Source of the DNA: Escherichia coli
Lineage (GTDB): Bacteria; Pseudomonadota; Gammaproteobacteria; Enterobacterales; Enterobacteriaceae
Strand: one strand, 5' to 3'
DNA length: 64,000 bases
Assembly: GCF_044324875.1 (NCBI RefSeq)
Contig: NZ_CP172185.1
Made by a program: the position numbers and the translations under genes. Under the pieces are notes generated by a model. The model searched no databases, was not told the origin of the DNA, and was given only the letters and a program-made list of their open reading frames with translations. Shown one piece after another: positions 43,406-43,687 of the stretch (within the stretch, counting starts at the first letter, position 1; each line of letters starts with the position of its first letter).

Positions 43406-43687
43406 TCAATTATCCCCTTTTTTAGGGTAGTTCCTGAACATCTCACCGCCAGGCTTCTGTAAGCCCATCCCGGTATGTGTGCGGTTTATGGCCTCTTTCA
43501 GTATTCCGAAATTATCCGGTATGACTGGTGGGCGTGCTGCCTTACGGATACATTCCGCGCGACGCTTTGCCACTTGTTCGCGCTCCTTGTCAGTGCTCAC
43601 CAGCCACATAACATCAGCCCATCGCGCGGCCGCCCTCCGGTAAAATCCTTTCGCCTCCAGTTCCTCCGCTATCCGGTCATGTACCAT
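43406..43687 (-). CDS. Putative PerC-family-like transcriptional regulator (~93 aa)
   Basis: Motif AEELEAKGFYRRAAARWADVMW resembles PerC/Pch activators; start chosen downstream of the ssb stop. Confidence 0.4.
   Translation of the reverse strand: MVHDRIAEELEAKGFYRRAAARWADVMWLVSTDKEREQVAKRRAECIRKAARPPVIPDNFGILKEAINRTHTGMGLQKPGGEMFRNYPKKGDN

Follow-up and report, generated by a model that had tools for sequence, protein, structure and literature searches.

The 64-kb stretch of Escherichia coli DNA analysed here (the window) contains one open reading frame of the PerC family, and profile and residue comparisons confirm that it is a real gene for a small regulator of the PerC/Pch type. It lies in a satellite, a capsid-forming PICI (cf-PICI) inserted in tqsA, where it forms the last regulatory gene of a leftward string running from alpA through the replication genes to ssb. 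The reading we favour, with a probability of roughly 55%, is that its product is a small Pch/ANR-like adaptor acting on nucleoid or regulator complexes, with host genes as its most likely targets and possibly island genes as well. Neither the PerC annotation nor the occurrence of PerC alleles on PICIs is new, pchE of the prototype cf-PICI being a published example; the assignment itself is correct and ordinary. The window DNA is 100% identical to that of E. coli LH50-c, in which RefSeq names the product 'PerC family transcriptional regulator' (WP_112047271.1). An identical protein bears this name on 643 public contigs, and a megablast search alone detected a close match to perC in at least 831 of 5426 complete E. 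coli genomes. A study of 2018 already mentioned that E. coli PICIs can carry PerC alleles (PMC6092414).

The gene is read on the minus strand from an ATG at 43687-43685 to a TGA at 43408-43406 and encodes 93 amino acids, in agreement with the preliminary description, which gave a protein of about 93 residues with the motif AEELEAKGFYRRAAARWADVMW; this motif occupies residues 7-28. The start codon is backed by the Shine-Dalgarno-like GGGGGTGA, by the RefSeq call in the 100%-identical genome (WP_112047271.1) and by the N-termini of homologues, which follow the pattern M[VI]xD..AE. A mechanically called ORF of 133 amino acids starting at GTG 43807 was rejected, its first 40 residues being the 3' end of ssb read out of frame. 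Only 10 nt separate the ssb stop (43698-43700) from the perC ATG, which leaves no room for a separate perC promoter, and the two genes are apparently cotranscribed. Consensus scans of the minus strand between 43700 and 45000 found no sigma-70-like promoter. Basal expression is known for pchE, and these scans give no promoter that would explain such expression. The substitution pattern confirms that perC is under purifying selection and rules out a chance ORF: dN/dS is 0.27 against pchE (dN 0.27, dS 1.0), 0.15 against the classical-PICI allele and 0.31 when 17 alleles are pooled, with both halves of the gene behaving similarly.

Family membership extends over the whole protein. The Pfam profile PF06069 (PerC) matches residues 1-89 along profile positions 1-89 of 90 (E=2.3e-37), and PHROG 994 is matched at E=2e-43. 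The motif AEELEAKGFYRRAAARWADVMW corresponds to the conserved core of PF06069. In an alignment of 65 sequences, with relatives down to 30% identity, 14 columns are invariant or at least 90% conserved, and the window protein carries the family residue in all 14 of them (D4, A7, L10, E11, G14, R17, R18, A19, R22, W23, C46, A66, M74 and G75); the conserved core A-E-x-L-E-x-x-G-[LFW]-[YW]-R-R-A-x-x-R-W together with C46, A66, M74 and G75 is present. The preliminary description had assigned the protein to the PerC/Pch type from its motif and named a Pfam comparison as a check. This comparison gave 127.6 bits against a cut-off of 22.6, and the assignment is upheld by the full-length match, by the near-invariant residues and by the homology to PerC of EPEC. 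The accompanying label 'activator' is best dropped, since the satellite-borne members studied so far repress their targets or leave LEE1 unaffected.

That the gene is encoded by a satellite was also proposed beforehand, and the gene content of the surrounding DNA agrees with it (Table 1): int, alpA, repA, iterons, ssb and capsid and packaging genes are present, and no tail or lysis genes were found in the island. Judged from its genes, the host element is a cf-PICI. The att sites escaped an automatic direct-repeat search, and their 9-bp core was recognised when the junctions were read; the split of tqsA is also annotated in JNE151685. The island is collinear with Sakai Sp7/O-island 51/CP-933C, which is EcCIEDL933, the prototype cf-PICI (10.1101/2022.09.08.507074; PMC3378721) and the only island for which helper induction and small satellite-made capsids have been shown (10.1101/2022.09.08.507074).

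Table 1. Features of the tqsA island around the perC-family gene, in window coordinates.
Feature	Position	Strand	Evidence or remark
Whole cf-PICI, ~15.6 kb, splitting tqsA; 9-bp att cores TGCTGTTAT	35232..50821 (cores 35232-35240, 50813-50821)	.	Both junctions read
HK97-type head and packaging module: capsid, protease, portal, head completion, connector, HNH, TerS, TerL	35653-42287	-	Pfam
HK97-type major capsid gene, first of the packaging module	41130..42287	-	Pfam Phage_capsid E=1.4e-61
Capsid-operon promoter-like region and ~200-nt leader	42288..42545	-	Sequence, alignment with divergent L057, RNAalifold
157-aa orphan gene, opposite strand, between the perC operon and the capsid operon	42603..43076	+	
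Bidirectional rho-independent terminator, 10-bp stem, T-runs on both strands	43080..43105	.	Terminator scan
82-aa gene downstream of perC, own AGGAGG ribosome-binding site	43112..43360	-	PHROG 1957 (E=6e-34)
perC-family gene (93 codons and TGA stop), positional counterpart of pchE	43406..43687	-	ORF, translation, Pfam PerC, RefSeq annotation in 100%-identical genome, dN/dS
Shine-Dalgarno-like GGGGGTGA between ssb stop and perC ATG	43690..43697	-	Direct sequence reading
ssb, immediately upstream of perC	43698..44108	-	Pfam SSB E=3.7e-16
Two small genes	between iterons and ssb	-	
ori-like iterons CTCCCCACTTTT, after the repA-type helicase	44662-44885		
repA-type helicase (AAA_25)	44873..46279	-	Pfam E=1.1e-42
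Small genes, including a DUF4222 (RgdR-like) protein	between Icd-like region and repA	-	
Icd-like region containing C4 antisense RNA	between alpA and small genes		
alpA, PICI master activator gene	48845..49033	-	Pfam Phage_AlpA E=5e-18
Tyrosine integrase	49408..50637	-	Pfam Phage_integrase, Arm-DNA-bind_3

Downstream of perC, the PHROG-1957 gene has homologues that adjoin the capsid gene in many cf-PICIs, including PerC-less ones (e.g., L067), and the bidirectional terminator beyond it is predicted to end the leftward transcript of ssb, perC and the 82-aa gene. The 157-aa orphan gene has no match in Pfam, PHROG, NCBIfam or PADLOC. It is missing from JNE151685 and Sakai, and homologues occupy the same slot in five other cf-PICI loci; this position is a variable accessory slot. 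Searches of NCBIfam and PADLOC likewise gave no match for the window PerC or its two downstream neighbours.

The combination of ssb and perC is not restricted to this type of island. The pair was found in L002, L004, L006, L011-14 and L084 and in 36 IMG/VR loci, and, at times with a ProQ-domain gene in between, it closes the alpA-replication string in four satellite backbones. These are the cf-PICI type of the window, a PICI whose capsid genes resemble lambda E/D (L004), PICIs that have a TerS of the Nu1 type and a second PerC paralogue (L011-14), and an element with a P4-alpha-type primase (L006), whose PerC shows 44% identity. A rho-independent terminator follows directly after perC in L002 and L004, and in the window it follows the PHROG-1957 gene. 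Conjugative plasmids, too, can carry short PerC genes. Among sequenced phages the family is represented in 23 of 50,697 records, mostly by the N-domain only and in early regions; full-length PerC-family genes are rare in phages and common in satellites and plasmids.

Identity to the window PerC is 73% for the classical-PICI allele P0013, 67% for PchE, 48% for PchA, 44% for EPEC PerC and 39% for PchD. The closest counterpart by position is PchE (ECs_1588, 'group 3'), encoded by Sp7/O-island 51/CP-933C of E. coli O157:H7 Sakai, that is EcCIEDL933. Its gene occupies the same slot, directly behind ssb and with an optional PHROG-1957 gene separating it from the HK97-type capsid gene, and since the Sakai gene following ssb is pchE, the window gene is its positional counterpart. 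The two satellites are of the same 15-kb kind and share the capsid-operon leader; they differ in their att sites, tqsA for the window island and roxA-phoQ for the pchE island, and in the replication protein, a RepA of the AAA_25 type versus a P4-alpha-like primase.

The similarity between the two proteins, 67% over 88 amino acids, is unevenly distributed. Identity is complete over residues 1-23, reaches 25 of 28 positions in residues 1-28 and drops to 34 of 62 in residues 29-90. Codons 1-23 of the window gene are of the pchE type, and residues 24-93 are identical at 68 of 70 positions to the 'MIKDSKAEELEAKGLYRR...' allele, which belongs to a group found in classical PICIs. By this comparison, the window PerC is a recombinant of pchE-type codons 1-23 with codons 24-93 of the other allele group. 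The DNA search, in which many genomes matched only the 3' two-thirds of perC plus the downstream DNA, agrees with such an origin. The C-terminal half is mildly basic in the window PerC (net +2; pI of the whole protein 9.8), a feature shared with PchA and EPEC PerC, and acidic in PchE (net -5). The phenotypes of PchE are therefore not simply transferable to the window allele, whose residues 24-93 come from another allele group and whose C-terminal charge is opposite.

Other relatives share the family features in different settings. PchA, PchB and PchC of EHEC ('group 1', activators of LEE1/ler) belong to the same Pfam family and have the core motif and the basic charge in common with the window PerC. 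With 104 aa and a net charge of +13, PchA, 48% identical over 93 amino acids, exceeds the window PerC in length and basicity, and the pchA gene sits alone, as a moron, among the late genes of the lambda-like prophage Sp4, whereas the window perC belongs to a satellite replication operon. With 48% identity to PchA and a satellite instead of a lambdoid moron setting, the window PerC falls outside group 1. The founding member, PerC (BfpW), is encoded by plasmid pEAF/pMAR2 of EPEC. It has 89 amino acids, is 43.7% identical over 87 of them (E=8e-26) and shares all conserved positions; its gene lies in the plasmid perABC operon next to the gene of an AraC-type regulator. The documented targets of EPEC PerC are ler, the fim switch, whose phase variation it alters, and nitrate-reduction genes (PMC5293775). 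EcCIMP1_025, compared here by description only, is likewise a PerC-family protein of an E. coli PICI, the classical EcCIMP1, which has no capsid genes. Its reported identity to the PerC-like proteins of EcCIEDL933 and EcCICFT073 is only about 40%, and the authors of that study noticed an ANR-like similarity (PMC11773190).

This similarity extends to the window protein. The AF2 model (mean pLDDT 84) contains four helices (residues 5-13, 16-29, 33-50 and 61-74) and no helix-turn-helix, and residues 1-50 are predicted to form a three-helix TPR/ANR-like hairpin module that carries the family motif. A phmmer search of the window PerC against 1.8 billion representatives returned 136 relatives, many of them of 55-80 amino acids and consisting of the N-terminal module only; these short relatives give a strong Pfam PerC match and a weak NCBIfam ANR match. 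The search reaches two proteins, P0197 (E=2e-5) and P0222 (E=3e-4), which align with residues 2-59 of the window PerC at 40-44% identity and pass the ANR model (NF033650, cut-off 32 bits) at 32.3 and 33.8 bits, respectively. The ANR model has no match to the window PerC itself at E<=0.01, and close relatives score 18 bits. We infer that the N-domain of PerC and the ANR family form one continuum, the homology being transitive, by way of P0197 and P0222. Like the window PerC as modelled, the ANR proteins (Aar, Cnr and Rnr; NF033650) are small, all-helical and devoid of a DNA-binding motif; unlike them, the window PerC is extended by a further C-terminal helix and a tail. ANRs work against AraC-type regulators as anti-activators, whereas the window island has no AraC-type gene. 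Sequence searches of the PDB with the single protein and with the 65-sequence profile gave nothing significant; the best match (E=0.098), to a short helix motif of ribosomal protein uS3, was regarded as chance. A Foldseek search against viral models returned none at E<=0.001.

The published properties of these relatives point to the function that we consider most probable. The members of the family differ in their effects: PerC and PchABC activate, PchD and PchE have no effect on LEE, and EcCIMP1_025 and PchE (at csgD) repress. Anti-silencing of LEE1 has been demonstrated for Pch only: activation there requires H-NS/StpA/Hha without exception, and Pch lowers the occupancy of LEE1 by H-NS (PMC4764244). 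The ANR prototype Aar is a three-helix protein that does not bind DNA and whose partners are AggR and H-NS (PMC4983702, PMC5570504). Overexpression of PchE, which leaves LEE unaffected, represses csgD more than 7-fold and lowers curli, and deletion of pchE slightly raises Congo-red binding (PMC6265319). EcCIMP1_025 represses LEE1-lux in C. rodentium (PMC11773190). The window PerC may accordingly be pictured as an adaptor that would perturb complexes of nucleoid proteins or regulators in the manner of Pch/PerC (anti-silencing through H-NS/StpA/Hha) and of ANR/Aar (AggR, H-NS). The loci affected would be horizontally acquired or surface-structure loci, and the effect would not be one of sequence-specific activation. 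Host genes would be the most likely targets, with precedents in loci of the curli/csgD type and, where present, of the LEE type; the effect would be expected to be at a low level while the island is integrated and to grow stronger once it is induced.

Regulation of host chromosomal genes, one of the two roles put forward in the preliminary description, finds published support by analogy in the positional orthologue PchE (csgD/curli) and in EcCIMP1_025 (LEE1). The predicted TPR/ANR-like fold suggests that the label 'PerC transcriptional activator' hides a protein-protein mechanism. A purely protein-protein mechanism is not established for Pch, because Fukui et al. observed no co-precipitation of H-NS with PchA and found Pch associated with DNA in vivo (PMC4764244).

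The second role put forward, that of the island's late activator, seems to us unlikely. On this reading PerC would be the late switch of the satellite, a product of the AlpA-driven early operon, made after helper induction, that turns on or de-silences the capsid and packaging operon through the leader of the latter. To our knowledge, no late regulator of cf-PICIs has been described, and our reading of the cf-PICI literature found no study in which pchE or perC was mutated. perC is the last regulatory gene ahead of the packaging module. Between it and the capsid gene lie terminators and, in this island, an opposite-strand gene; the capsid operon therefore needs its own promoter or antitermination. 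The 260 nt preceding the capsid ATG are strongly conserved, a footprint kept even in L057, whose capsid protein is 69% identical. The leader contains an AT-rich TTTTGTAAATTATTTGT, tandem GGTTGTTC repeats (42503-42520) overlapping a promoter-like pair TTGTTC/16 nt/TATTTT, a conserved hairpin CCCGCCTG...CAGGCGGG with a variable loop and, abutting the capsid ATG, a terminator-like hairpin GTCCTGG...CCAGGAC followed by T7-8. Between the window and L057 the spacer of the promoter-like pair varies in sequence and is constant in length. If PerC acts on the island, this leader is the candidate target.

The leader was surveyed in IMG/VR loci that are related in the capsid gene and include sufficient DNA upstream of it, allowing at most one mismatch per GGTTGTTC repeat: an adjoining PerC was present in all 38 loci with the leader element (36 full-length and 2 partly deleted) and in none of the 17 without it. 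However, this co-occurrence represents two or three lineages, and physical linkage explains it. The 17 cf-PICIs, which have related capsid modules, possess neither PerC nor ssb and carry another leader, which indicates that PerC accompanies the replication module and does not belong to the core functions of cf-PICIs. Moreover, the tandem GGTTGTTC element is absent from PerC-positive PICIs with unrelated packaging modules (L004, L011-14), which weakens the link between PerC and this site, and two groups of PerC alleles that differ in one third of their residues are paired with a nearly identical leader. It also counts against a late switch that pchE is transcribed without induction, that SOS induction lowers its mRNA (PMC6265319) and that the predicted fold has no DNA-binding motif. 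A more specific version, to which we give slightly less credence still, holds that PerC is the missing early-to-late switch of E. coli-type cf-PICIs, an ANR/TPR-like adaptor that would license the capsid operon at the GGTTGTTC-repeat promoter and leader. It might, for instance, displace H-NS-type silencers or contact RNA polymerase, and what Pch proteins do to the host would then be a side effect.

Satellites such as P4 and the SaPIs commonly encode small modulators of helper gene expression, and PerC could be aimed at the helper phage or the induced cell, reprogramming the late transcription of the helper or host functions for the benefit of the satellite, like P4 Delta or SaPI Pti. The position of perC within a gene string expected to be induced by AlpA would fit such a role, as would the rarity of full-length PerC genes in phages compared with satellites and plasmids. 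The studied homologues, however, act on host loci without a helper (PMC6265319, PMC11773190), and we regard a helper-directed function as improbable.

It is very improbable that perC is a passenger, hitch-hiking or in decay, that serves no function at present: rare in-frame ssb::perC deletions (L016, L030) do remove the conserved N-domain and leave the capsid module intact, C-terminally shortened alleles (82 aa and others) exist and perC is a recombination junction, but dN/dS stays at 0.15-0.31 in both gene halves, the exact protein recurs on the 643 contigs, all family-invariant residues are kept, and the PchE phenotypes argue otherwise. The deletions themselves say little either way, because the L016 junction occurs in 1 of 5426 complete genomes, against hundreds with an intact ssb-perC.

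The adaptor reading and its alternatives have different consequences for satellite biology. E. coli satellites often keep perC at the end of the replication operon under purifying selection, in at least 831 of 5426 genomes for the window allele alone. If PerC controls the capsid operon, a gap in the cf-PICI life cycle would be filled. If it changes the expression of host surface or virulence genes, these satellites would be regulators of host phenotype as well as hitch-hikers.

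The perC gene, located at 43406-43687 on the minus strand and encoding the 93-aa PerC/Pch-family protein of the cf-PICI, is itself a recombination joint, with the breakpoint around codon 23/24. The ssb gene and the first 23 codons of perC are of the type of pchE, its positional counterpart in the O157 Sakai Sp7/O-island 51, while the rest of perC together with the downstream gene belongs to another allele group. The breakpoint falls within the most conserved PerC motif, which probably serves as a homology patch for recombination. Natural in-frame ssb::perC fusions were found at two IMG/VR loci (L016, 3495-3752, and L030, 3133-3300), in which the first 12 or about 25 ssb codons lead straight into perC at codon 30 or about 54. 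The PerC N-domain is deleted in these fusions, whereas the capsid module retains 98% identity. Of 5426 complete E. coli genomes, one has the L016 junction.

PerC-family genes are also present in other types of elements. Classical PICIs with Nu1-type TerS (L011-L014) each encode two paralogues, which are 95 and 100 aa long; one gene follows ssb-proQ and the other lies near a SocA/Panacea-domain gene. The short PerC genes of IncK2/Z plasmids (L007) are likewise neighboured by a ProQ/FinO-domain gene. The core motif of the family, DxxAExLExxGxYRRAxxR, resembles a helix of the ribosomal protein uS3 (ADxIAxQLERRVMFRRAMKR) when the profile of the aligned PerC relatives is compared with PDB; however, the match is not significant (E-value about 0.1) and the likeness is probably due to chance.

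In comparison with JNE151685, the window contains two extra genes between perC and the capsid gene. In many cf-PICIs, PerC-less ones among them, the capsid gene is immediately preceded by a homologue of the first, the PHROG-1957 gene, whose product thus follows the capsid module more closely than PerC. The second, transcribed in the direction opposite to perC, encodes an orphan protein with no family match in Pfam, PHROG, NCBIfam or PADLOC, but homologues of it are found at this position in five further cf-PICI loci. Defence genes are expected by others in this variable slot.

The region upstream of the capsid operon contains an AT-rich block and tandem GGTTGTTC repeats (42503-42520), overlying a promoter-like pair (TTGTTC/16 nt/TATTTT), as well as a conserved hairpin whose loop varies. 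A terminator-like hairpin followed by U8 directly adjoins the capsid ATG and would sequester the AGGA Shine-Dalgarno sequence of the capsid gene. This footprint with its terminator-like hairpin suggests that the packaging operon is controlled by attenuation, by antitermination or at the level of translation. In cf-PICIs that lack PerC, the hairpin at this place is another one, GGTTTCACGTC...ACGxGAAACC.

Features of the island and of related elements (coordinates refer to the window unless indicated)
Feature	Coordinates	Strand	Remarks
att core, TGCTGTTAT	35232-35240 and 50813-50821		9 bp, duplicated at island ends inside tqsA
Capsid-operon upstream region	42288-42545	-	phylogenetic footprint
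Orphan gene	42603-43076	+	157 aa
PHROG-1957 protein gene	43112-43360	-	82 aa
Iterons, CTCCCCACTTTT / ATTCCCCAC	44662-44885	both	at least 9 copies
DUF4222 protein gene	46276-46563	-	homologue of RgdR (ECs_1581), 59% identity
C4 antisense RNA	47472-47559	-	Rfam RF01695, 72.3 bits (gathering score 45), E=1e-12
PerC-family paralogue genes	6001-6288 and 10051-10353 (in L011-L014)		

Insertion of the island disrupts tqsA, an AI-2 exporter gene. A nearly identical island in E. coli LH50-c is located between phoQ and roxA instead, and differs from the window in its alpA-proximal region. The iterons lie directly downstream of repA, overlap the following small ORF at its 5' end, and are presumed to be where replication of the island starts. 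Between the replication genes and alpA, the C4 antisense RNA sits within an Icd-like region, where overlapping ORFs (47247-48792) contain two readable Icd-like C-terminal repeats; this arrangement suggests a P1/P7-type antisense-RNA immunity in the satellite.

The DUF4222 protein is the homologue of RgdR, a regulator of LEE and motility that has been published for O-island 51. The RGD motif is functionally important in EHEC RgdR, whereas the protein encoded in the window has PGD in its place. The island thus encodes two small proteins with relatives that influence how virulence is regulated in the host.
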